Position numbers and translations under genes: made by a program
In this document: positions 1-62,585 of the stretch, piece by piece
How positions within the stretch are numbered: the stretch's first letter is position 1
Layout: every line of letters starts with the position of its first letter
Source of the DNA: Ignavibacteriota bacterium
Lineage (GTDB): Bacteria; Bacteroidota; Ignavibacteria; CAWHAG01
Reading direction: 5' to 3'
NCBI GenBank assembly: GCA_963827285.1
Contig: CAWHAG010000001.1
Coordinates: 274,682 to 338,681 of the forward strand
Length of the DNA: 64,000 bases
The notes under the pieces: model-generated
Databases searched by the model: none
Seen by the model: the letters and a program-made list of their open reading frames with translations, nothing else
Told to the model about the DNA's origin: nothing

Positions 1-728
1 AACACATCTATGCCCACATCCCGCTGAATGATCTCCGCGTAGTGTCGAAGTGCTCTATCAAGCAATTCAACGTCCCGCGGTATTGCTCCTTTCTGAGGTG
101 CATAGACGAACGATGCGCCTCCAGAGCCACAGAGCTTGTTCGTAACGTCTGTCGCACCGATGATTTCAATGTTGTGGATTCTCTTGTCAATGTCCGAAAT
201 ATCCATACGTGCAAGATCGAGGAGTGTGGCACCACCTTGCTGAAGCTCACGACCGTGTGAGTCAAGCAATTGTACCCCTAATGCTTAAGCCATGCCGGCA
301 CCGCCGTCATTAGTCGCACTTCCTCCGAGTCCAACAATGATTCTCTTCACACGCTGATCCATTGCAGCACGGATAAGTTGGCCGACACCGTATGTGGTCG
401 TAACCTTTGGATCTCGCTTTTCAAGTGGAACGAGCGTGATACCCGCTGCTGCCGCCATTTCAATCACCGCTGTCGTTCCATCGCCCAGGACTCCCCAGGT
501 TGCCTTTACCTTCTGATAGGGTAGAGGTCCCGAGACCTCCGACTCATAGAAGGTTCCGTTCGAGGCAGAGATGAGCGCGTCCACCGTGCCCTCACCGCCA
601 TCGGCAATCGGAAGAGCAAGAACTTCTGCGATGGGGAGTGCTTTCTCCACTGCTTGGGTCATGATGTCAGCGGCTTTCCGGGCTGTGAGCGAGCCTTTGA
701 ATGAGTCGGGTGCGACGAGAACAGTCAT
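1..728 (-). pseudogene. glycerate kinase (GlxK/GarK family), interrupted by an in-frame TAA at 285-287; 3' end runs off the window
   Basis: ORF 285-728 begins MTVLVAPDSFKGSL...LPIADGGEGTVDA...GLGGSATNDGGAGMA, typical glycerate kinase. The same frame continues past the stop as ALGVQLLDSHG...GATDVTNKLCGSGGASFVYAPQKGA... down to position 3. The stop sits where the family has a conserved Gln (CAA vs TAA). Confidence 0.6.
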
Positions 729-1038
729 GGGTGTCAGGTTACATGGGTATCAGGTTACAGAGGTCAGATTTCAGTTGGAGGTTGACCAAAAAGATCACAA
801 ATTGTCACCCCGAAGTTGTTTCGGGGTCTGAAAACAGCCCAGAACAGATGCTGAAACAAGTTCAGCATGACAACAGTCATGCATTCGTTTACTTTCTGTT
901 CAACCTCTTACCCTGTTTAACTGAAAGATAAGCATTTCCAGAATCTTCCTCAATGGAAAAATGATTTGTGAATCTGCGCCTTTTTTTGTAGATTGAGACA
1001 GTCGAATATCCAACGAGCATTATTCTCAGGGGAACAGT

Positions 1039-1819
1039 ATGATTGACATCGCCATCCAAGCTGCTCGAGAGGCAGGCAAGTTCTTGAAAGCCAATCTCGG
1101 CAAGGTCAGGAATATCGAACACAAACGGGAAGAAATCAATCTCGTTACAGAAGTTGACAGGAAATCCGAAGCGATCATCATTGATATGATCAGACAGCAT
1201 TACCCGCACCATGATATCTTAGCCGAGGAGACTGGAAGTCATAACAAGGCATCAGACTTCAAGTGGATCATTGACCCACTCGATGGCACAACGAACTACA
1301 CACATGGACTGCCTATCTATGGCGTGTCCATTGGACTTGAGAAGCGCGGGGAGATCATTCTTGGCGTTGTGTATAATCCTAATCTTGATGAATTGTTCGT
1401 TGCCGAGAAAGGGGGCGGTGCATTCCTGAATCATCGGCGCATCAAGGTTTCTGAGACCAAAGAGTTTATCAAGAGCCTCTTGATAACGGGGTTCCCTTAC
1501 AGTGTAAAAGAGAATCCCGGCAACTGTATCGAGCACTTCAATAATTTCCTGGTCTCAGCGCGGGCAGTCCGTCGCCTTGGCTCGGCATCGTTGGACATGT
1601 GCTACCTCGCCTGCGGGCGCTTCGATGGATTCTGGGAAGTGTTCTTGAATCCCTGGGATTCTGCTGCTGGGTATCTGATGATTCTTGAGGCGGGAGGAAA
1701 GGTCACCGATTTCGCTGGCAGACCATACAGCATCTATTCAGAAGCCGATATTAGCGAGCAACGGTAGAATTCATGAGCAGATGATGGAGATATTGAGAAA
1801 GGGAAATGTTGGTCAATAA
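1039..1819 (+). CDS. inositol monophosphatase family protein (SuhB-like) with apparent frameshift near the C-terminus
   Basis: 242-aa ORF with IMPase motifs (LAEETG, WIIDPLDGTTNY, WDSAAG). ORF stops at 1767 (…SEADISEQR*), but the +1 frame from about 1742 reads ILASNGRIHEQMMEILRKGNVGQ* ending at 1819, the canonical IMPase C-terminus. Confidence 0.75.
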
Positions 1820-13576: not shown

Positions 13577-14275
13577 CTATTTTCCTCTTGTTGAACCGCT
13601 TGTTCTCTTGCCTCCGCTATCGCTCTTGCCATCGTCTGAACTCTCGTCTCTTTGAGCATCGTTAGAACGTATATCTGTTGTGTTACTGTTGTCCCTTGAA
13701 TTACTGGTCGAGTCCTGCCGTACTGACCCCCGGGCGTCTTTCTGCGGCGATGAACCCGCTGTGTTTTCACTGCTGGTTGATGCACCAGCGGCGGAAGGAA
13801 CGCTTCTTGCCGGCGGAGGAATGTTGATTGTGTTAGGACTACTTCCTCTTTGACTGCCGATATTCCGCCTGCTATCATCATACTGGCTGTCAACTGAAGT
13901 CTTCCCACTTCCGCCACCGGATTGAACCGCTCCCCCCCGCGTATAATCATACCACCACGGATAATGATAGTAATTCCACCGCCGACCATGGGTTGTAATG
14001 GCTCGATTTTGCTCACCATTGATGGTGCCGTCGTCTCCGCGGCTGAGATTGCCAAACAAAGCTACATCGTGGTCGTAGGTGTTGTCGCTGTATCGCTCCG
14101 TGTGACAGCTTGAGCACTCATCTCGGTAGCCAATCGTCGCTCGGTAACCATTCTCGCTATCATCTTTCATTGCTACTTCTGGATGCTTAAGCACAGTGTA
14201 GCAACCAGAGATGCCAAGAGCGAACAGGACAACAAGTCCGAGATATTCTTTCCTTCTAATAAGTCTCATCTTCAT
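13577..14275 (-). CDS. low-complexity lipoprotein (lipobox ISGC; Tyr/Trp-rich core; Ser/Thr/Gly/Arg/Asp-rich tail)
   Basis: MKMRLIRRKEYLGLVVLFALGISGCYT...; WNYYHYPWWYDYTRGG; long disordered S/G/R/D tail. Confidence 0.6.
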   Translation of the reverse strand: MKMRLIRRKEYLGLVVLFALGISGCYTVLKHPEVAMKDDSENGYRATIGYRDECSSCHTERYSDNTYDHDVALFGNLSRGDDGTINGEQNRAITTHGRRWNYYHYPWWYDYTRGGAVQSGGGSGKTSVDSQYDDSRRNIGSQRGSSPNTINIPPPARSVPSAAGASTSSENTAGSSPQKDARGSVRQDSTSNSRDNSNTTDIRSNDAQRDESSDDGKSDSGGKRTSGSTRGK

Positions 14276-14845
14276 TTGCCTCTGTGAGCTTTTTCTACCG
14301 GCTATCGTCCTCTGGTGCTTCCTCCTCCTCGGCTGCCCCCACTGCTTCCGCCCCCGCCACTTCCACCCCGACTTCCTCCACCGCTTCCTCCTCTGGTACC
14401 TCCACTGCTACTTGGTGGGGGAGAGTAACTTGGTGAGGATGATTAAGCCGGAGGAGTATAACTCGATGGCGTAGCTCCTGATTTCGGAGAACTTGACGAT
14501 TGTGACGAAGGATGCGAATTGGTGCGTGTCCTGCTCCTTCCGCTCTCTGTCCTGGGACGAATGCTGGGCACCGGCACGGGTTTCAGTTCATTGGGGACAA
14601 CGTATTTGCTTTTGCCTTTAGGATTATCATCTCTTGTGCTTCCGCCTCTCGATTTACTATCTCTCGAACTTCCGCCTCGTGTATTGCCTTGACCTCGTGT
14701 CCCGCTTCCACCCTGGTTGCCTTCAACTCGTGTTCCTCCTCCAGCACGGTCAGCGCCGACGGTCGGATTCCGGTCTGTTCCAGTGCGAGTTCTGTCTGTA
14801 CCCGCTGCACCGCGGGTCGTGCTTTCCTTCGTTGTGCTTTCGGTT

Positions 14846-15415
14846 CTAGTTCCCGTAGCCGATGGTGGATTGAAGGAAGAAACCTGCTCCACCGGTAGAT
14901 ACGCCCCGCGTTGAACCAGCGCCACGAGTTGAACCAAAGTCTCTCGTCCTTGAGCGATCCTTGTTATAACCGTAGTAAGTGCCGTAGTAGTAGGGATTAT
15001 AGTCGCCGTAGTAACCCCCGTAGTAGTAATTCCCGTAAGGGTAATACCACCCAGGACTGTAGCCGCCGTAGTACCACCATGGATGCCAATACCAATCGGG
15101 GTACCAGTACGAACTCGACCAATAGTAATTGCCCCCGTACCAATCATCGTAAGATGGGTCGAACCAATAGGAGGACGGATAATAGAACCGGAAGTAGAAC
15201 CTATGACGAGGGTAGCCATAGAAGTAATAGTTGTTGACAACATTGCCGCGCGCCGTATCCGTAGAGGCGTAGGTGCTATCTTGGTCATAGTATTCATTGG
15301 AGTAACTCTCGTCTGACCTCATAGTGGCGACTTGTGTGTAGCAGCCTGAGATCAGCAGACCCATCCCCAGAAGTCCGATCAGTAGAGTTAGTGTTGCTTT
15401 CGCCTTTCTGTTCAT
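14846..15415 (-). CDS. paralogous Tyr/Trp/Gly-rich lipoprotein (lipobox ISGC); apparent frameshift, tail probably continues to 14443
   Basis: MNRKAKATLTLLIGLLGMGLLISGCYT...; extreme aromatic stretch (YYWSSSYWYPDWYWHPWWYYGGY...). The S/T/R/G-rich tail continues in another frame (ORF 14443-15297, C-terminal part), mirroring the tail of the 13577-14275 paralog. Confidence 0.6.
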   Translation of the reverse strand: MNRKAKATLTLLIGLLGMGLLISGCYTQVATMRSDESYSNEYYDQDSTYASTDTARGNVVNNYYFYGYPRHRFYFRFYYPSSYWFDPSYDDWYGGNYYWSSSYWYPDWYWHPWWYYGGYSPGWYYPYGNYYYGGYYGDYNPYYYGTYYGYNKDRSRTRDFGSTRGAGSTRGVSTGGAGFFLQSTIGYGN

Positions 15416-15824: not shown

Positions 15825-16725
15825 CTAACGGTGTTCTCGTTCCGATAGTGCACTTGCTTTTAGGTAATCCCGAAAATTCCTGTGTCCATCAACCACCTCA
15901 TTGTGTTGAAGGTTGGTGTAGAGGAAAACAAGCCGATGCTTTCGCAGATCCTCTGGTGTCACATCTGCTTCTTTTCTCGCAAGATGCGGAATGCCCCAAC
16001 TCTCCAAATCAGAGATCAATGCTTCGGTCTCGTCCTTTGTCCCGCCATCCTTTGTGTAAATGCTGATAAGTTTGCCGTTGTGATGATCAAGCCAGTACAC
16101 GTACTTTTCCGTTTGTCCGTAAAGTGCGTCGAACAGAAACACCTCTTTGATATGATCAGTTAATCCACCACGCATGAGGATAAAGGAAATAACGTGATAG
16201 CCCCCACTATGACCCGAGAGGATGATGTCCCCTATTTGCCTGCTTGTCGTTTTCTTCTGCTGAAAGAGCCACTCGATAATATCACTCATAAACCTCTCGA
16301 ATCCTTCTGGATCTTCCAGTTTGCCACCGAACGAATCGGGAGAGTTGCGAGGTCCCTGAGGGAACGATCAAGATGGCGTTTTTCTCACTCTCACTGAACT
16401 GCTCGATGAGCTGAAAACGACGCAACACACTGTCAACATTGTTCCACCAACCATGGAAGTGAACGGCGAAGTCAACTCTTTCTGTCTGCCTATACCCTTT
16501 CGGAATGAACATTGCTACGCTGCTGTCGTTGTAGTGTTTATCGGCCGGATAGATCACGTTGTCATATTTGTGTCCTTCAGCTCGTTTTGGATGAGGAAAT
16601 GGTGCGGAAGAAAGCTGCGTAATGATTAGCTCACCGAACTGGGTATATCGTTGATCTGGATTTTGGGCCTGCAGAGCGACTGCTGTTGAAAGCATTGGAG
16701 CGAGTAGTAGTGAAAGTTTATTCAT
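15825..16725 (-). pseudogene. alpha/beta-hydrolase (esterase-like, GHSGG nucleophile elbow) split by a frameshift near 16355-16368
   Basis: ORF 16282-16725 (signal peptide...AVHFHGWWNN...NAILIVP) and ORF 15825-16289 (MSDIIEWL...IGDIILSGHSGGYHV...) are adjacent. The frame of the second reads back as ...QGPRNSPDSFGGKLEDPEGFERF-MSDIIEWL, joining the first after ILIVP. Confidence 0.65.
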
Positions 16726-16832
16726 AAATCATGATGGTGCGTGTTAGAGAGAGTTGTGGTCACTCATATGAAGACGAAAGCAAGTAGCGAGATCCTTTTG
16801 TTTCTCGCTTCTCGTCTCCTGTAAATGCAGAA

Positions 16833-23113: not shown

Positions 23114-25069
23114 CTATTTGCTGATGATCATTTTGTTTGTTTCAGTGAAACCCTTTGCCGACAGACGATAGAAGTACACACCGCTGGATAGAATGTCGAA
23201 TGTTCCCGCAAAGCGGGATCGAATATCGAATGTCACACGGTAGTTTCCAGGATTTTTTTCTTCATTTACCAAGGTTGCCACTTCTCTTCCAAGCACATCG
23301 AAGACTTTCAGCGTCACGTGTTCGCGCTGTGGAAGTGAGAAACGAATCGTGGTGGCAGGATTGAAGGGATTCGGATAATTTCGTTCAAGCCGATAGCCTT
23401 GCGGCGCCATGGGCAGAGATTCTTTCACGCTTGTGATGGCCGTCGTTGACAGCAAAACCCGAGATGGACAACTCGCATCGTGATAAATACAATTCGTCGC
23501 GACAAGCGTATCGCCTGGTTTGTAAAGAACACCGCCATTATTCAGGTTGATATCAAAACGTGGGTAGTCCGATGAACTCACATCAATCCGCAACTGGTGT
23601 CCCTTCAGAAACGTCATTGCAAGATTTTGCAGTTCAGTCGTCACAGGATATATTTGCCCGGGTGTCATTAAATCTTCCACACTGTACGAATTGCGGAAGC
23701 GCATTCGTCTGATACCAGCCGTCAGAATCATGGAGCGTCCGTCGGGGTACACATCGCACAAACGTACACCGAAGTCTGTATCTTTTCTGTTGGATGACAC
23801 ATAGAGTCGAACTTCTGTTGCTCCGTCCACCATCAAATCATTTTGGAGAACCGGAGTGGTGTACGTGAGAACATCGCTGCGGCTTTCAACACGCTGTCGC
23901 TGGTCGAGCGGTCCACCCTGAACCGACGGGTCAAACGGATTAAATCTCACACCGCCGTAAGAGGGTGTAGGATCGCGCGGATTGTACCTCAACGAATCAG
24001 GTGTGGCACTCTGTGGTGGTGCAGCTCGTGATAACAAGCCGCCCGATTGCAGATACAACGTATCCGTTGCACCGCCGAGCGAATACCAATCGCTTGTTGA
24101 GCGCCATTCATCTGTTCCCATCTGGTAGTAGCGTATAGTCGGGTTTTGGTCGTACCCGCTCTGCATGTTCCGCAGATAGTAATCAAAGAAACGCATTGCT
24201 GCGGTATCAGAGATCCCAACGGCGTTCGGATACTCTAACTCTCCTTGCTTCGATTTTCCTATTTCTGAATGCATCCAGGGACCGATAATGAATTTGTGCT
24301 TCGAGCGAACTGATGGTGCACTTCTCGCTTTAAGATCATGAAAAGCACGAATCACATCATCAGGATAATGGTCGTACCATCCACCAATCAGAAGCATGGG
24401 TACGGCAATCGAATCGGGATAATCCGAACTTGTCTCGAGGAGCCTCCACATCGGATTATATGATGGGTTTGCTAATATGAACTCCGTCGGGAGAAACCCG
24501 AGTCTTTCCATCGTCTCATTGTGTTCCTTCAGGTAATCGCCACCATAATAAAAATTCGAGTACGCAATTTTATAATCTTTCACCAGCGGCATACTGCAGA
24601 CAAGATGCGGCGGATGGTGTTTGGCTGTCTGAAACTGAATGAGACCCAGAGCGGACGGTCCCCACGTACCGACTTTGCCATTGCACCACCGCCGATATGC
24701 TATCCATTCAACGGCATCGTAGCCATCCAAGCCTCTATCGTAGCCGGATACATCCGCATCCTTCGAGCCGTAGAATCCACGCCAATCAACAACTACGCAA
24801 TTGTAATGCACACTGTCGTAAGGAAACGATGAGCCGCCTGCTTCCGGCAGACCAACTCTGATGCGATAATAATTTTTGTTGTATGGTGTCTGGACGAGGA
24901 TGACGGGCTTTGCTGCAGTGGTGTCAAGGGAATATAGATCAGCCGCAAGAACTTTTCCATCACGGGTCGGAATCGTGATGGGAATGTAACGCGCTGTATC
25001 TTGAGCGAACATCCTGGAACCGAGCGTTGTTATAAGACAGACGATCAGATAATAAACTGTGATTTTCAT
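23114..25069 (-). CDS. CocE/NonD-family hydrolase (S15 Xaa-Pro dipeptidyl-peptidase-like) with T9SS C-terminal sorting domain
   Basis: 651 aa, signal peptide; YNCVVVDWRGFYGSKD region; C-terminal ERNYPNPFNPATTIRFSLP...VFDVLGREVATLV...GVYFYRL...KMIISK is a T9SS CTD. Confidence 0.7.
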   Translation of the reverse strand: MKITVYYLIVCLITTLGSRMFAQDTARYIPITIPTRDGKVLAADLYSLDTTAAKPVILVQTPYNKNYYRIRVGLPEAGGSSFPYDSVHYNCVVVDWRGFYGSKDADVSGYDRGLDGYDAVEWIAYRRWCNGKVGTWGPSALGLIQFQTAKHHPPHLVCSMPLVKDYKIAYSNFYYGGDYLKEHNETMERLGFLPTEFILANPSYNPMWRLLETSSDYPDSIAVPMLLIGGWYDHYPDDVIRAFHDLKARSAPSVRSKHKFIIGPWMHSEIGKSKQGELEYPNAVGISDTAAMRFFDYYLRNMQSGYDQNPTIRYYQMGTDEWRSTSDWYSLGGATDTLYLQSGGLLSRAAPPQSATPDSLRYNPRDPTPSYGGVRFNPFDPSVQGGPLDQRQRVESRSDVLTYTTPVLQNDLMVDGATEVRLYVSSNRKDTDFGVRLCDVYPDGRSMILTAGIRRMRFRNSYSVEDLMTPGQIYPVTTELQNLAMTFLKGHQLRIDVSSSDYPRFDINLNNGGVLYKPGDTLVATNCIYHDASCPSRVLLSTTAITSVKESLPMAPQGYRLERNYPNPFNPATTIRFSLPQREHVTLKVFDVLGREVATLVNEEKNPGNYRVTFDIRSRFAGTFDILSSGVYFYRLSAKGFTETNKMIISK

Positions 25070-25383
25070 TCTATCACGACCATTGATTTTTGTTGGACAT
25101 ATTCACCGTCGCGAAGTTGATAAAGATATACACCGCTGGATAGAATGTCGAGTGTCGAATAACGAATGTCGTATGTCGCACGATAGTTCCCAGGACTCTT
25201 TTCTTCACTTACCAGGGTTGCCACTTCTCTGTCCAATACATCAAAGACCTCGAGAGAAACAGATGTAGAATTCGGGACTCGAAATTTGTCATTGGATTGA
25301 AGGGGTTTGGATAGTTCTGGGATAGCCGATGGTTGCTCTCTGTCATCCGTGTGGATAGCACTTCCACGATGGAACTGATTCAA
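25066..25383 (-). pseudogene. orphan T9SS C-terminal-domain remnant (frameshifted, no catalytic domain upstream)
   Basis: ORF encodes ...VSLEVFDVLDREVATLVSEEKSPGNYRATYDIRYSTLDILSSGVYLYQLRDG...; QNYPNPFNP is in a different frame just upstream and preceded by a stop; DNA is clearly related to the 3' end of the adjacent S15 gene (23141-23300). Confidence 0.6.
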
Positions 25384-25460
25384 CAGATCAAATATTGGTG
25401 GATAAATCTGTGCATATCCGTCACATCCGCGTTATCCGTGGTCCATTTTCTTCTGGTGGT

Positions 25461-50779: not shown

Positions 50780-50930
50780 GAACTCCCATCTTAGATGGGG
50801 ACTTTCTCGTGAGTTCTTTGAAACATAGTGTGCATACCAAGTCAATTTAGCAGAGTTTCACACCTCGTCCTTCCGCCGCAAGTGGAAGGACAAGATTGAA
50901 CTCGAAGTTGTCTTTGAAAGAATACAACGG

Positions 50931-52466
<1,536 letters not shown>

Positions 52467-52566
52467 AGTTCTCTCTCGACGGTGTCGAGGGTAAACATCC
52501 TTTCCTGCTAAATCTGATTTTACTATGCACACTATTTTATTGAAGTCAGCTTGGCTACACTCACAA

Positions 52567-52640
<74 letters not shown>

Positions 52641-52671
52641 CACAGGTGTGTGTTCCCAACCGAGAGACTAC

Positions 52672-52744
52672 GGGGCTATAGCTCAATTGGGAGAGCGCCT
52701 GCCTTGCACGCAGGAGGTTATCGGTTCGATCCCGATTAGCTCCA
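52672..52744 (+). tRNA. tRNA-Ala (anticodon TGC)
   Basis: GGGGCTATAGCTCAATTGGGAGAGCGCCTGCCTTGCACGCAGGAGG...; G3-U70 identity pair present. Confidence 0.9.
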
Positions 52745-52805
52745 CTGGGAGAGCGTGGCGCCGTTAGGCGCCAAGGTAGTCGGTTCAAGCGCGATTAGCT
52801 CCACA
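52745..52805 (+). other. tRNA-Ala-derived fragment (D-loop and 3' acceptor retained, anticodon arm replaced by GGCGCC hairpin)
   Basis: CTGGGAGAGCG...GGTTCAAGCGCGATTAGCTCCAC parallels the tRNA-Ala 3' two-thirds immediately upstream; no 5' acceptor strand. Confidence 0.5.
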
Positions 52806-53186
52806 AAGAGTGATTGGTTAGGGAAGCAATATTTGTCATATCAGATTTGGTTGCGCTGATAGGTGTTATCATTGCGGTGCGGGATACTTACACCTTGCGC
52901 AAGGAGAAAAAAGCAAAAAGGGTTTAGTTTGATATAAGAAATAGGGTAGGCGATTCTCGCTTATCATCCAAAAGTGTTCTTTGACAATTGAGAAGAGTTC
53001 ATCAGCTTCGAGGTAAGTAGTTGTGGCGCATTTGGCGCCATAAATTCTGCCCATGGTGCCACGAACAAACATCTTGAAGTTTGATGACTGCAAAGAAAGA
53101 CCTAGCAGTATTTCCGTAGTATTTGTTGATGCACCGAGTCCGATTCCCAATCGGACCAGACTATCTGTGTATCAATAAAGATTTTT

Positions 53187-56267
<3,081 letters not shown>

Positions 56268-56348
56268 TAATCTTTATTGATATCAGATGGTGGTGCATCA
56301 ACAAATGGTTCGGAAGTAACTCTTCTCGATTGTCTAAACGTTAGAATT

Positions 56349-56466
56349 CCCTGGCGACAATATCACGGGTGTAACACCTCTTCCCATTCCGAACAGAGCA
56401 GTTAAGCCCCGTAGAGCCGATGGTACTGCATGGGCAACTGTGTGGGAGAGTAGGTCGTTGCCAGGG
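56349..56466 (+). rRNA. rrf: 5S ribosomal RNA
   Basis: CCCTGGCGAC...CCGAACAGAGCAGTTAAGCCCCGTAGAGCCGATGGTACTG...GTTGCCAGGG; followed by a T-run. Confidence 0.9.
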
Positions 56467-56515
56467 ATTCTCTTTTTCCACCAACCCACGGAATTCTCAA
56501 AGGAGGGAAGGTCAC

Positions 56516-57094
56516 ATGAAACGTCTCTCTGTGGTTGTTGCCTTCTTAGCGATTCCCCTGCTGTATCCTAACCTGCACGCTCAAGAGAATATCTCTACGA
56601 CGCAGTCAATCTCTCTGCAACCAATCTTCTGGATTGAGAGCGTGCTTCCAAGAGAATGGATAGGGGTTTCAGGTCAGTATGAGTTGGGTGTTGCAGTGGA
56701 TAGGAGCTTAACGTGGAGGATGTTCTGGCTTCGTATGGCACGGATGGCATTCGGGGATTTTACAGGACTCGAAGCAGTTGGCATATCCGCCGAGTATCGT
56801 ATTTATCTAGAGGACGATCTTCAGGGATGGCACCTCGGTCCCTTTGTGGAAGGCTCTCGGTGCGGGTGGCGCGCATACGGTGGAGGTGTCTTTGGCAATT
56901 ACGCCAAGAATGTATTTGATTTTGGCATACAGGCTGGGCACAAGTGGATCTCAAAACACCACGTCTCCTTTGATATTTCTGTGAGAGCAGCATGGTTCAG
57001 TCATTCGGTGGAAAGAGGCTATGCCACATTTCTGCCTAGAGGTGATTTCGAACCGAACGGACACCTGCTCGTGAGCATCGGATACGCTTTCTAG
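56516..57094 (+). CDS. hypothetical small outer-membrane beta-barrel-like protein
   Basis: ATG preceded by AAGGAGGGAAGG RBS; signal peptide MKRLSVVVAFLAIPLL...AQ; ends GYAF; about 192 aa. Confidence 0.6.
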   Translation: MKRLSVVVAFLAIPLLYPNLHAQENISTTQSISLQPIFWIESVLPREWIGVSGQYELGVAVDRSLTWRMFWLRMARMAFGDFTGLEAVGISAEYRIYLEDDLQGWHLGPFVEGSRCGWRAYGGGVFGNYAKNVFDFGIQAGHKWISKHHVSFDISVRAAWFSHSVERGYATFLPRGDFEPNGHLLVSIGYAF

Positions 57095-57875
57095 CTGATC
57101 CGTAGCTGGCAGTCGCGAGTATGTAAATCATATTGCTTAGACTTGACAATCGTGTTCTTACCACGCCGGAAAGGAACAGGATATCACATGCGAAATCCCT
57201 TCATAGAATTCCACCCTTGTCTCTCACCTTCATAGAAGAGAGTCTCCTTGTCGAACTGATCTAGCAGTCGAATCAATCATGAAACATCAAGGTCAAGTTC
57301 CAACCTCGCAGTGATCTCACTTCTCACGCTCGCTCATCTTATCCTCGAGAGTCTCTCCACATCAATCCATCTATTCTCAGAGCAATCAGCCTCATTCCAA
57401 AACTCAGTTTCCAAGAATGAATTCCATTGTGAATGCTGGTGTCATTCCAAGGAGGTCCATCTGCAAATCTTACCAATGACACCGAAATATTTACCTGGGA
57501 AATCTGAACGAAAAAGAATTCGCCAAAGAAATCCAAACGGTGCTTAGTTTTTGCTAAATCCGGGGGATCAGATATCAACTTGAAAGCGAAGAGAAAATGG
57601 TACGATGATTGCATACGATAAATTAGTGGAACTCTCTCTAGTGGTGGACTTCCCATCAAGATTTGTCGGAATCAAAAGGATGAACATTTAGTTCTACGAT
57701 TCAAAGGGAAAGGCCAGTTCGTGGGTCCTCTGAATCAAGTCCCCAGGGTGAGCTTTCGCTTCGCATGACATGATGCACAACACCACTTGAAACCAGTCAT
57801 CTACAGAGCGGCCAAGAACTTCATTGACAAATCGTCTCGGCGTTCTTCCATCCATCAAGGTTGGGACGTGACACA

Positions 57876-60800
57876 ATGCTGAAACAACTCCTTCGTTTCA
57901 TAGCCAGTCTCGAACTCATACTTATCGTTGGCGCGACGCTGAATGCTGGATCTCTGATCCCCCCTCGGCACTTGGGTGAACTGTCAAGTCTAAGCGATGC
58001 AGCACTATTGGGGAGAGCGAGAGCATCTCGCGTTGTGAAACATGGTTCACTTTTGTTCACCCGGACATCTTTCGAGGTGTTGGATGTGATGCGGGGATCT
58101 GTGCGGAAGGGTGATAGCGTTTGTGTTGAGACTCCCGGAGGGGCGGGGGATGGTGTGGCTTGGTTGGTGCTCGGTTCGCCGCGATTCTTGGAGGGGCAAG
58201 TTTATCTCCTATTCCTAAATCGCAAATCCCCTGATGTGTGGCAGCCGCGTATGCTCTCGTATGGATTGCTGCAGCGCGTTAGAGGTCGCGATGGCACAAA
58301 TCTTCTTGTTCCACTTGCTGAGAGAGACGGACTTCAGCCCTTTCCACGTCCAGATGGAGTTGTCCCCGAGCCCGTTGGTATCTACCGAGAGAAGATGCTC
58401 CTCAGCCATCTGACACAAGTCGTGCGAGGAGAAATCCGGTGGAACTCGAAGGCTGTACTAGCACCCAGCGAGGTGATACCTACAGAAGCGTTGCAGGTGT
58501 TGGCTCCACCTTCTCAGTGTGCGTTCATGAATTATGGAGGTCTGAACATAAGGTGGAACGTGTTCGATGGTGGCGGACAGGTCACTGTCAGTGCTAATGC
58601 GACTGGAGACAACTCTCTTCCTGGAGGTGGCTTCGCAGAGGTGCAAGGGGCTGTCTCGGATTGGATGAGCGTTCCTAACACCACCATCAACCTCGGCTAC
58701 GGGGGTGCCATGAGCTACGCCATGACCTGTACCGGAAATCAGGACACGCCCGCCTCTGGTGTCAACATAGTAATGTTCAACGACCCATGCTCGGATATTC
58801 CTGATCTTTCAGGCTGCACTGGGACGCTGGCATTCGGTGGACCATGGTTCGGCGGCACACACACGTTTGATGGCGCTACGTGGTACTCTATTCAGAGCTG
58901 CTTTGTCGTGGTGAACAACGGTGTAGGTTGTCTGGGTAGCGCCAACTACCGGCGAATGATAGCTCACGAGTTGGGCCACGGTTTGGGCTTTGGTCACTTC
59001 AGCGACCCCAATGCTCTCATGTATGCCTACTGCTGCAACTCTATCAGCTCGACGGACATAACGTGTGCACAATACCTTTATCCCGTGGTGCTTTCAGCAC
59101 CTTCACTCTTGTCTCCATCAGATGGTGGGACAGATGTTTCAACGAGCCCGACGTTGAGTTGGAACGCTTCCAGCGGTGCGACTTCGTATCGGTTGCAGGT
59201 TTCGACCAGTTCAGGCTTCGCGACAACAGTGTATGATCAAAGCGGAATTACGGGTACTTCTCAGGCTGTGACAGGTCTTTCAAACAATACGATGTATTAC
59301 TGGCGAGCGAACGCGACTAACGCTGGAGGGACAAGCGCTTGGTCCAGCATCTGGAGTTTCACTACAGCGGGTGGCGTGACTCCGTCACCTCCAGTGCTTG
59401 CCTCCCCCGCAAATGGTGCAACAAGTGTTTCAACGAGTCCGACATTAAGCTGGAACGCCGCGAGTGGCGCGACATCATATCGGTTGCAGGTGTCAACAAA
59501 TTCAAGTTTCTCGTCAACGGTGTTTGATCAAAGTGAAATCACAAGCACTTCTCAGGTGGTGACAGGTCTATCGAACAATACGATGTATTACTGGCGAGTG
59601 AACGCCACTAATACTGCAGGGACAAGTGTCCGGTCTAGTGTATGGAACTTCACAACGATTGCTGGCGTACCGTCAGCACCAACGCTTGCTTCACCTTCCA
59701 ATGGTGCAACAGGAGTATCAACAAGTCCGACCTTGAGTTGGAATGCTTCGAGTGGAGCGACATCCTATCGCCTGCAGGTCTCTACAAGTTTAAGTTTTTC
59801 GACAACAGTGTTTGATCAGAGTGAGACAACTGGAACATCGCGGCTCGTGAGTGGGCTATCGAATAACACCATCTACTACTGGCGAGTGAACGCAACTAAT
59901 GCTGGAGGGACAAGCGGTTGGTCTGGCATGTGGAGTTTCACAACGACGGGTGGGGTCGCTCCCTCAACACCAATGCTTGCCTCGCCGGCAAATGGTGCGA
60001 CTGGAGTCTCAACAAGTCCGGCATTGAGTTGGAACACTTCTAGCGGTGCGGCTTCGTATCGGCTGCAGGTTTCCATGACTTCTGGTTTCGCGACAACAGT
60101 GATAGACTCCGGTGGAATAGTGGGAACGTCAGTCTTGTTGAGCAGTCTTGTCAACAACACTACCTACTTCTGGCGTGTAAATGCGACAAACGCTGGAGGG
60201 ACAAGCGATTGGTCTAGTGTGTGGAATTTCACAACGACTGTGGCAGCTCCCTCGCCGCCAACTCTTGCCTCTCCGTCAAATGGTGCAACTGGAGTCTCAA
60301 CAGGTCCGACATTGAGTTGGAACACTTCTAGCGGTGCGGCTTCGTATCGGCTGCAGGTTTCCATGACTTCTGGTTTCGCGACAACAGTGATAGACTCCGG
60401 TGGAATAGTGGGAACGTCAGTCTTGTTGAGCAGTCTTGTCAACAACACTACCTACTTCTGGCGTGTAAATGCGACAAACGCTGGAGGGACAAGCGATTGG
60501 TCTAGTGTGTGGAATTTCACAACGACTGTGGCAGCTCCCTCGCCGCCAACTCTTGCCTCTCCGTCAAATGGTGCAACTGGAGTCTCAACAGGTCCAACAT
60601 TGACTTGGAACGCTTCCAGCTCTGCAACTTCGTATCGGCTGCAGGTTTCCATCACTCCTGATTTCGTGACGACAGTGATAGACTCTGGTGGAATGGCAGG
60701 AACATCAGTCATGCTGAGTAGTCTTGTCAACAACACCACTTACTACTGGAGAGTGAGTGCAACAAACGTTGGAGGAACAGGCGCCTGGTCAAGCGTCTGG

Positions 60801-62585
60801 AGCCTCACAACCATTGTGGGACCCCCATCACCGCCTCTACTCGTTTCTCCTTCGGACGGCGCGATCGGTGTTTCGACGAGTGAGACGCTAGTCTGGAATG
60901 GCTCAGCGAATGCTGCATCATATCGCCTGCAGGTTTCCATCAATCCAGATTTCTCGGAGATCTCGTTCGATCAAAGCAGCATCGCGAGTACTTCGCAGGT
61001 CGTAACTGGACTTTCAAACAACTCAGCATATTACTGGAAGGTGAATGCGGTGAATGCTGGTGGAACTAGTATCTGGTCAAACGTCTGGTCTTTCACAACC
61101 ATGCTTGCTCCACCAATTCTCGCCTCACCTTCAGATGGTGCGACGGGTGTTTCAACTGATCCAACACTGACCTGGAGCAGATCCAGCGGTGCGACATCGT
61201 GTTGGATACAAATCTCCACCAGCGCAGACTTCTCTTCTCTCATCATCAACCAGAGTGGAATCCCGCTTCCGCTGTACAAGGCGAACAGTCTATCCAGTAA
61301 CACAACGTATCATTGGAGGGTTAATGCAGGAAATGCAGGAAGAACAAGTGTCTGGTCGAGCGTCTGGAGTTTCACGACGGTTGTAGCGGCTCCATCAATC
61401 CCGAGCCTTGCATCTCCATCGAATGGTGCTGCAGGTGTCTCCACAAATCCCACCTTGGATTGGAACGCCTCATCAGGTGCAACATCATATCGGCTGCAAG
61501 TTTCCACCAGTTCTCATTTTGAAACGACGGCCACTGACACGAGCGGGATTCCGGGAACGTCAGTCCGGACCAATGGCTTAGCCAACCATAGGACATACTA
61601 TTGGAGACTGAGCGCGACGAACGTAGGGGGAACGAGTGATTGGTCATCCGTGTGGGATTTTATGACCACCAACAGGGCGCCCAAACTCATTCTCGGTGCT
61701 TACGACACCACGATCAATCAAGGTGAACTTCTAAGCTTCAGCGTTGCAGCGGCAGACTCGGATTACGACCCATTGGCGTTCACGGGGTTCAATCTCCCAC
61801 CAGGAGCTACGCTTGATTCACTCAGTCCCACAAGTCGGGTGTTCGACTGGACACCCACGTACACCCAAGAGGGAGTCTTCAGCAACATCAAGATCGTTGT
61901 CTCCGATGGTGATTCATCAGACAACGCACAGTTTACGATCACTATCAGGAAAGTGAATAGAGCTCCAGCACGGTTCGCTCTTGTATCTCCGACATCAGGA
62001 GATACAGTCGCACTGACGTTTCCATCCAAACCGATTGTCTTTCGTTGGCACAAGTCAATAGATCCGGACGTTTCAGATACAGTCAGGTACTCGCTGCGTG
62101 TAACGGGTTCAGGATTCGATGACATGGTGGCTAATATCAAGGATACGACCGTGTTGCTCGATATCATGTCCCGCCTCAAGAACTCAAGCATTTACTTGTG
62201 GTATGTGGTTGCTACCGACGGACAGCTTGCATCAAACTCGGATTCTGCCACCTTCAGAACATCCTCAAGAGTCACGGGCATGCCTGACAACGTCAAGAAG
62301 ATGCCGACAGAATTTGCGTTACATCAAAATTATCCCAATCCGTTCAATCCATCTACAGAGGTTGTTTTCGCCGTTCCAAACCGGTGTCGTGTGAAGATAG
62401 ACATCTTCAGCGTTCTGGGCAACGTAGTATGTGAAATGACAGATGCAGAGTACCCGGCGGGTGTTTATCGTGTGCGATGGAACGGGCAAAGCACATCAGG
62501 AGCTGCGGTTTCAAGCGGTGTCTATTTCTATCGGATGATAACTGAGACTGGAGTGTTCACTAAAAGAATGGTTTTGCTGCGATGA
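57876..62585 (+). CDS. giant secreted metzincin-like zinc metalloprotease with nine tandem Fn3-like repeats, cadherin/Ig-like domains and T9SS C-terminal sorting domain
   Basis: HELGHGLGFGH (HExxHxxGxxH) followed by ALMY Met-turn; nine units of about 96 aa (SP.NGATGVSTSPTLSWNASSGATSYRLQVS...YYWRVNATNAGGTS.WSS.W.FTT); C-terminal FALHQNYPNPFNPSTEVVF...GVYFYRM CTD. Track ORF starts at a TTG (57861). Confidence 0.8.
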   Translation: MLKQLLRFIASLELILIVGATLNAGSLIPPRHLGELSSLSDAALLGRARASRVVKHGSLLFTRTSFEVLDVMRGSVRKGDSVCVETPGGAGDGVAWLVLGSPRFLEGQVYLLFLNRKSPDVWQPRMLSYGLLQRVRGRDGTNLLVPLAERDGLQPFPRPDGVVPEPVGIYREKMLLSHLTQVVRGEIRWNSKAVLAPSEVIPTEALQVLAPPSQCAFMNYGGLNIRWNVFDGGGQVTVSANATGDNSLPGGGFAEVQGAVSDWMSVPNTTINLGYGGAMSYAMTCTGNQDTPASGVNIVMFNDPCSDIPDLSGCTGTLAFGGPWFGGTHTFDGATWYSIQSCFVVVNNGVGCLGSANYRRMIAHELGHGLGFGHFSDPNALMYAYCCNSISSTDITCAQYLYPVVLSAPSLLSPSDGGTDVSTSPTLSWNASSGATSYRLQVSTSSGFATTVYDQSGITGTSQAVTGLSNNTMYYWRANATNAGGTSAWSSIWSFTTAGGVTPSPPVLASPANGATSVSTSPTLSWNAASGATSYRLQVSTNSSFSSTVFDQSEITSTSQVVTGLSNNTMYYWRVNATNTAGTSVRSSVWNFTTIAGVPSAPTLASPSNGATGVSTSPTLSWNASSGATSYRLQVSTSLSFSTTVFDQSETTGTSRLVSGLSNNTIYYWRVNATNAGGTSGWSGMWSFTTTGGVAPSTPMLASPANGATGVSTSPALSWNTSSGAASYRLQVSMTSGFATTVIDSGGIVGTSVLLSSLVNNTTYFWRVNATNAGGTSDWSSVWNFTTTVAAPSPPTLASPSNGATGVSTGPTLSWNTSSGAASYRLQVSMTSGFATTVIDSGGIVGTSVLLSSLVNNTTYFWRVNATNAGGTSDWSSVWNFTTTVAAPSPPTLASPSNGATGVSTGPTLTWNASSSATSYRLQVSITPDFVTTVIDSGGMAGTSVMLSSLVNNTTYYWRVSATNVGGTGAWSSVWSLTTIVGPPSPPLLVSPSDGAIGVSTSETLVWNGSANAASYRLQVSINPDFSEISFDQSSIASTSQVVTGLSNNSAYYWKVNAVNAGGTSIWSNVWSFTTMLAPPILASPSDGATGVSTDPTLTWSRSSGATSCWIQISTSADFSSLIINQSGIPLPLYKANSLSSNTTYHWRVNAGNAGRTSVWSSVWSFTTVVAAPSIPSLASPSNGAAGVSTNPTLDWNASSGATSYRLQVSTSSHFETTATDTSGIPGTSVRTNGLANHRTYYWRLSATNVGGTSDWSSVWDFMTTNRAPKLILGAYDTTINQGELLSFSVAAADSDYDPLAFTGFNLPPGATLDSLSPTSRVFDWTPTYTQEGVFSNIKIVVSDGDSSDNAQFTITIRKVNRAPARFALVSPTSGDTVALTFPSKPIVFRWHKSIDPDVSDTVRYSLRVTGSGFDDMVANIKDTTVLLDIMSRLKNSSIYLWYVVATDGQLASNSDSATFRTSSRVTGMPDNVKKMPTEFALHQNYPNPFNPSTEVVFAVPNRCRVKIDIFSVLGNVVCEMTDAEYPAGVYRVRWNGQSTSGAAVSSGVYFYRMITETGVFTKRMVLLR
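59110..61670 (+). repeat. intragenic tandem repeat, nine units of about 288 bp (coding Fn3-like modules)
   Basis: Periodic antisense ORFs (59876-60160, 60164-60448, 60452-60739) and near-identical protein units; units 4 and 5 (about 60030-60300 and 60318-60588) look identical over roughly 270 bp by eye. Confidence 0.8.

Follow-up and report, generated by a model that had tools for sequence, protein, structure and literature searches.

A class I glycerate kinase gene interrupted by an in-frame TAA at a conserved glutamine codon in an Ignavibacteriota contig, probably a recent pseudogene

The class I glycerate kinase gene at the edge of a 64,000-nt stretch of an Ignavibacteriota contig (CAWHAG010000001.1; this whole stretch is called the window below) is interrupted by an in-frame TAA at a codon that specifies glutamine in nearly all of its homologs. 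The same gene appears to contain another nonsense codon shortly after the window edge, and its divergent neighbor, a gene of the inositol-monophosphatase (IMPase) family, has a frameshift close to its 3′ end. In our opinion, these lesions are best explained by relaxed selection on the locus and a kinase gene that has recently become a genuine pseudogene, a reading to which we assign a probability of about 0.6. The feature is most likely an ordinary interrupted gene rather than a novel mechanism.

The kinase gene is on the minus strand and runs from position 728 of the window down past position 1. Its N-terminal fragment (285..728, minus strand) comprises 147 codons, starting with MTVLVAPDSFKGSL and ending in ...GLGGSATNDGGAGMA, and the TAA at 285..287, which is codon 148 (on the gene strand T is position 287 and the two A are 286 and 285; the plus strand reads TTA). 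The 147-aa product is identical to the database protein P0020. After the TAA, the same frame stays open for 94 more codons, 149 to 242 (ALGVQLLDSHG...GIDV; 2..284, minus strand), up to the window edge. When the stop was masked, PF02595 (Gly_kinase) gave a single match over the 242 codons (E = 1.9e-94; profile positions 1-238 of 372; 317 bits against a cut-off of 23.3), and TIGR00045 also gave a single match across the stop (316 bits, cut-off 168.45). As both matches run across the stop, we are dealing with one interrupted gene and not with a pair of chance ORFs. The 2-kinase/3-kinase equivalogs NF007668 (256 bits, cut-off 686) and NF007401 (245 bits, cut-off 625) were below their cut-offs, with only 242 of the 379 residues scored. 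A Pfam search of the window ORFs revealed no further PF02595 gene within the 64 kb.

The sequence-only reading had placed the TAA at a conserved glutamine, and the alignments confirmed this. Among the 113 top homologs in which the motif could be located, the column of the stop contains Q in 110 and E in three, and none of these sequences has a stop there. The structure 3cwc, which aligned end to end with the 242 codons (E = 2e-68), has Gln at this position; in 1to6, an Ala is aligned with it. We also surveyed metagenome_contigs with the degenerate pattern GAGMA[any]ALGVQLLD. None of the 31 loci recovered has a stop at the codon 148 position; all of them carry CAA, CAG, GAA or GAG, at identities of 59% or less. 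Among 82 other fetched loci, the motif could be located in 54, and these have no stop at this position either. All of the 115 full-length homologs are continuous, whereas the window kinase does not form the single uninterrupted frame of about 370-390 codons expected of the family.

The remainder of the gene lies outside the window, and it was traced through the deposited proteins. P0020 is on record in NCBI and ENA from one contig of 1,630,525 bp. The 94 downstream residues were used as a query and matched P0122, which is encoded on this deposited contig as well. This protein of 111 aa begins, as called, at a TTG located six codons after the TAA and ends in ...GLGAGLVAFCNG (...AFCNG), 22 residues beyond the window edge. 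P0123, again from this contig, was found when the last third of the nearest full-length homolog served as the query; its 113 aa (MNGIDVVLD...STWNFEL) cover the remainder of the glycerate kinase family, including the conserved ITGEGKID region. The kinase gene is thus deposited as three ORFs. Placed on the homolog P0001, the fragments occupy residues 1-147 (P0020), 154-264 (P0122) and 267-379 (P0123); this numbering fits another in-frame stop, at codon 265, and allows for no indel. Judged from the deposited fragments, the gene appears to carry at least two nonsense codons. The earlier statement that the 94 codons downstream of the TAA are open therefore holds as far as the window edge, but the frame closes again 22 codons past it.

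A close intact ortholog was found in the 90% cluster of P0123. It is P0282, a full-length member of 379 aa, and three sequencing runs (L114-L116) each gave it in an independent assembly. The L114 sequence aligns with the window kinase without gaps, at 89% protein identity and 90.4% DNA identity; the identity between P0001 and the window kinase with its fragments is 76%. At codon 148, L114-L116 have CAA; at codon 265, they have CGA, which is followed by CTG ATG. The TAA is accordingly one C-to-T transition away from the CAA of the ortholog, which directly supports the single-base change that had been supposed from the sequence. The second stop would likewise be one C-to-T change from CGA if it is TGA, the codon itself being outside the window. 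P0282, the closest relative, is filed as a non-representative under the 113-aa fragment in the clustered protein database, and for this reason our first homology search missed it. The practical lesson is that a decisive intact ortholog can hide inside a clustered protein database.

The IMPase-family gene (PF00459; 1039..1819, plus strand) is 87% identical to a 259-aa ortholog in locus L081. Its first frame begins at 1039 and is closed by a stop at 1765-1767, and the conserved C-terminus (KPILASNGRIHEQMMEILRKGNVGQ, then a stop; PILASNGRIHEQMMEIL) is found in the next frame, up to 1819. The difference comes from one excess base at 1738..1747 (plus strand), where the window reads TCAGAAGCCG and L081 reads TCCAGGCCG. 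Compared with the L081 ortholog, the final 25 codons are shifted out of frame, though their sequence is conserved.

Between the two divergent genes, the intergenic region (729..1038) contains two perfect hairpins, each with an 8-bp stem and a 5-nt loop, at 807-827 (ACCCCGAA/TTCGGGGT) and 848-868 (ATGCTGAA/TTCAGCAT). The first 180 nt or so upstream of the kinase are conserved in the relative L115, which has an extra insertion of about 45 nt beside the first hairpin. We examined, and rejected, the idea that the kinase and the IMPase-family gene are functionally linked. Only L081 and L082 among the 116 fetched loci have the two genes adjacent, and the closer relative L115 does not. The next-closest ortholog comes from hot-spring metagenomes, and the adjacency is common to that relative only. 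L082 comes from JGI 3300010938, the co-assembly of the Chocolate Pots hot spring (PMC6137239).

If the gene is a recent pseudogene, the C-to-T transition that turned CAA into TAA, and Gln148 into a stop, would be a recent nonsense mutation in a class I glycerate kinase gene, and the second nonsense codon, at 265, would probably have arisen by a C-to-T change of the CGA seen in the ortholog to TGA. Translation would end after 147 residues and give a product without the conserved ITGEGKID region. As such a product lacks this region, and as no homolog is naturally split, an active kinase would not be expected. The divergent IMPase-family neighbor would have been inactivated by its +1 frameshift. 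With the neighbor also inactivated, the whole small locus appears to be under relaxed selection. The stop, its alignment with the conserved Gln and CAA, the deposition of the gene as three ORFs, the frameshift of the neighbor and the normal use of TAA as a terminator are observed directly; we infer that the lesions exist in the organism, beyond its assembly, and that the enzyme is non-functional. In favor of this, the gene has disabling lesions at codons 148 and 265 when compared with an intact close ortholog, and the lesions are clustered, which is the pattern of relaxed selection on a dispensable locus and favors a pseudogene.

The selection statistics would fit a gene that was inactivated very recently as well as one that was never inactivated. 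The comparison of the window gene with L114 gave a dN/dS of 0.26 overall, 0.29 before the TAA and 0.21 after it. With P0001 as the outgroup, 16 amino-acid changes were unique to the window lineage and 13 to P0282 (P = 0.71), and the test against P0001 with ten outgroups showed no rate asymmetry either. Ninety columns are conserved in 95% or more of the homologs; the window kinase keeps 85 of them, and intact controls keep 85-89. However, an Ala that is invariant in 115 of 115 homologs is replaced by Val in the window lineage (A250V), which speaks for a pseudogene. Neither dN/dS nor the relative-rate tests of the window kinase against the intact ortholog gave a signal of relaxed selection. As there has been no measurable drift since the interruption, the lesions must be either very young or not real. 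This counts against a pseudogene, as does the "clean" nature of all of the lesions, which is what consensus errors would look like.

The main competing explanation is that the single deposited assembly has consensus errors at the TAA, at the second stop and at the nearby frameshift, and that the kinase is intact in the organism. Locally low coverage or a mixture of strains could be the source of such errors. We regard this explanation as possible but somewhat doubtful. Apart from its stops, the kinase resembles a functional gene in its dN/dS of 0.26, its symmetric rates and its conserved residues, and the out-of-frame C-terminus of the IMPase-family gene is still almost identical to that of its ortholog. 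Moreover, at least one more frameshift, situated in a short C run, is present elsewhere in the window, and both frameshifts are single-base excesses. In the genome, metagenome and protein collections searched, we found only one assembly of the species and no second assembly, read set or other sequence of it, and a protein scan of genome_contigs did not contain the source species (best match 58% identity).

The additional frameshift is in a gene for a secreted hydrolase-like protein of about 300 aa (15825..16725, minus strand), with a signal peptide and no Pfam family. A frameshift at GTTCCCTCAGGG (16365-16354) divides it into two ORFs, 16282..16728 and 15825..16367. In its homologs of 290-310 aa, the first 125 residues or so match the upstream ORF and the rest match the downstream ORF. 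The representative library contains 657 homologs, and the full-length ones inspected cover both pieces. We used this broken gene as a measure of the background lesion rate. At a distance of 16 kb from the kinase, it also shows that lesions are not confined to the kinase locus, which is a further point against the pseudogene.

The remainder of the window looks well assembled. Pfam family matches fell on 29 other genes, 46,035 bp in total, as single uninterrupted ORFs, including those of 1608, 1585, 1031 and 999 aa, and all of the 80 homopolymer runs of at least 5 nt in the intact genes are in frame. These two observations exclude a generally noisy consensus, and the in-frame homopolymers also argue against consensus errors at the kinase. 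The length of the contig, 1.63 Mb with an rRNA operon, suggests that long reads were used. Only about one in 20 substitutions makes a stop, so two stops in a gene of 1.14 kb would be very improbable as random miscalls and would imply a high substitution error rate, which is seen neither in the gap-free alignment with L114 at 90.4% identity nor in the intact 46 kb. The lesions share no recurrent sequence motif. A motif-specific C-to-T artifact was considered as well. GGCTTAA is also present at the possible in-frame TAA of a lipoprotein gene (14449) and at the normal stop of CysS, but the artifact was rejected, since GCTCAA and GGCTCAA are present unaltered 37 and six times, respectively.

The distribution of the lesions also bears on the choice between these two explanations. 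We counted three lesions in the 2.2 kb or so of the kinase-IMPase locus and one confirmed lesion in the other 47 kb or so. Under a uniform lesion process, the Poisson probability estimated from these counts is below 0.001, and the difference is unlike uniform random error. The sequence-only reading had offered a choice between a recent nonsense mutation and a base-call error. This alternative still stands, but the TAA proved not to be an isolated lesion, as several are present in a small locus. With the lesions clustered in this way, a single random base-call error is a poor explanation, although a locally bad consensus would be compatible with them. On these grounds we prefer a recent pseudogene.

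Another lesion may be present in one of two tandem lipoprotein genes (13577-15415, minus strand), which have extreme low-complexity regions rich in Tyr/Gly/Trp and in Ser/Gly/Arg. The upstream gene, from 15415 downwards, may change frame near 14850 and may then contain an in-frame TAA at 14443-14445, but this is unproven. The 46 codons after this TAA align with the C-terminus of the adjacent paralog (...GSTRGR and ...GSTRGK, each followed by a stop) at about 3 SD above shuffled sequences. In this repetitive sequence, all three frames are open around the TAA. A Pfam search of 20 small or odd ORFs for more broken genes was mostly uninformative.

It could also be supposed that the stops are real and the kinase is still made, through read-through or suppression of TAA and TGA or through association of separately translated fragments. 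This would explain why the statistics of purifying selection are like those of the intact ortholog, and the gene caller did find start codons for the second fragment (the TTG six codons after the TAA) and the third (an ATG at codon 267). Nevertheless, we consider it very improbable. TAA is the most efficient terminator in bacteria. The only tRNAs in the window are Ile-GAT and Ala-TGC, both in the rRNA spacer, and a suppressor tRNA is absent from it. None of the 115 full-length homologs is split. As for codon 267, the intact ortholog has the ATG too, as an ordinary internal Met. Furthermore, read-through would not rescue the frameshifts of the neighboring genes.

A genetic code in which TAA is read as glutamine can be practically dismissed: the TAA of the kinase does fall exactly on a conserved Gln, and a second in-frame TAA is possible at 14443-14445 in the low-complexity lipoprotein gene, but the terminators of the 29 intact genes in the window are TAA in ten, TAG in 12 and TGA in seven, the Pfam match reaches the last residues in several TAA-ended genes (CysS, RimM and an FTCD_C protein), and none of these 29 Pfam-supported genes contains an internal stop of any kind, TAA included. 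The reassignment is refuted by this terminator usage, and the window follows the standard code.

Some other features of the window were recorded. A complete rRNA operon is located at 50924-56466 (plus strand; 16S, tRNA-Ile, tRNA-Ala, 23S and 5S). Its 23S match extends over 3083 nt against a model of 2925 positions, so that about 160 nt are extra, as an insertion or an expansion. The 1.3 kb or so after the 5S gene (56467-57827) contains no convincing gene; a 239-aa ORF at 56375-57094 has a weak DUF3575 match (E = 0.002). It is followed at 57828-62585 (plus strand) by the gene for a secreted protein of 1585 aa, with a matrixin-like domain, many fn3/Ig repeats and a type IX secretion tail. Antisense to this gene, at about 59876-60739, there are three consecutive ORFs of 288 bp with near-identical ends, which point to tandem repeats of about 288 bp in the gene. 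Several proteins of the window have C-terminal sorting domains of type IX secretion. A 121-aa ORF at 25066-25431 (minus strand) has little beyond a weak domain of this type (E = 0.0036); it overlaps the start of an S15 peptidase gene and could be what is left of a longer gene.

Should the lesions be real, a bacterium of a hot-spring lineage would recently have lost its class I glycerate kinase, and the phosphatase of the adjacent IMPase-family gene would probably be lost with it; metabolic reconstruction of glycerate, serine and glyoxylate salvage would be affected. If they are artifacts, the locus marks a weak stretch in an otherwise good assembly. In either case, the appropriate annotation is a pseudogene or "frameshifted/internal stop", instead of three small proteins. 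Outside annotation, the significance is slight.

Compared with known systems, the gene is closest to the class I glycerate kinases (GlxK/GarK; PF02595, TIGR00045). It matches them at full length and with a high score over all of the 242 visible codons, and with P0122 and P0123 the match spans the whole 379-aa protein. The motifs GGSATNDGGAG and ITGEGKID are both present in the kinase of the window lineage. It differs from them in being interrupted by the TAA at codon 148 and, as the fragments suggest, by a second stop at codon 265. The locus is similar to ordinary bacterial pseudogenes in that non-essential metabolic genes are hit and several disabling lesions, recognized against close intact orthologs, are present in one small locus. 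In contrast to them, selection on the kinase is not measurably relaxed, and it would thus be a very young pseudogene or none. With stop-codon reassignments (TAA/TAG to Gln, as in translation table 6 and some phage codes), it shares an in-frame TAA at a conserved Gln; however, TAA is a regular terminator here, only one gene or perhaps two would be concerned, and the other genes are affected by frameshifts.
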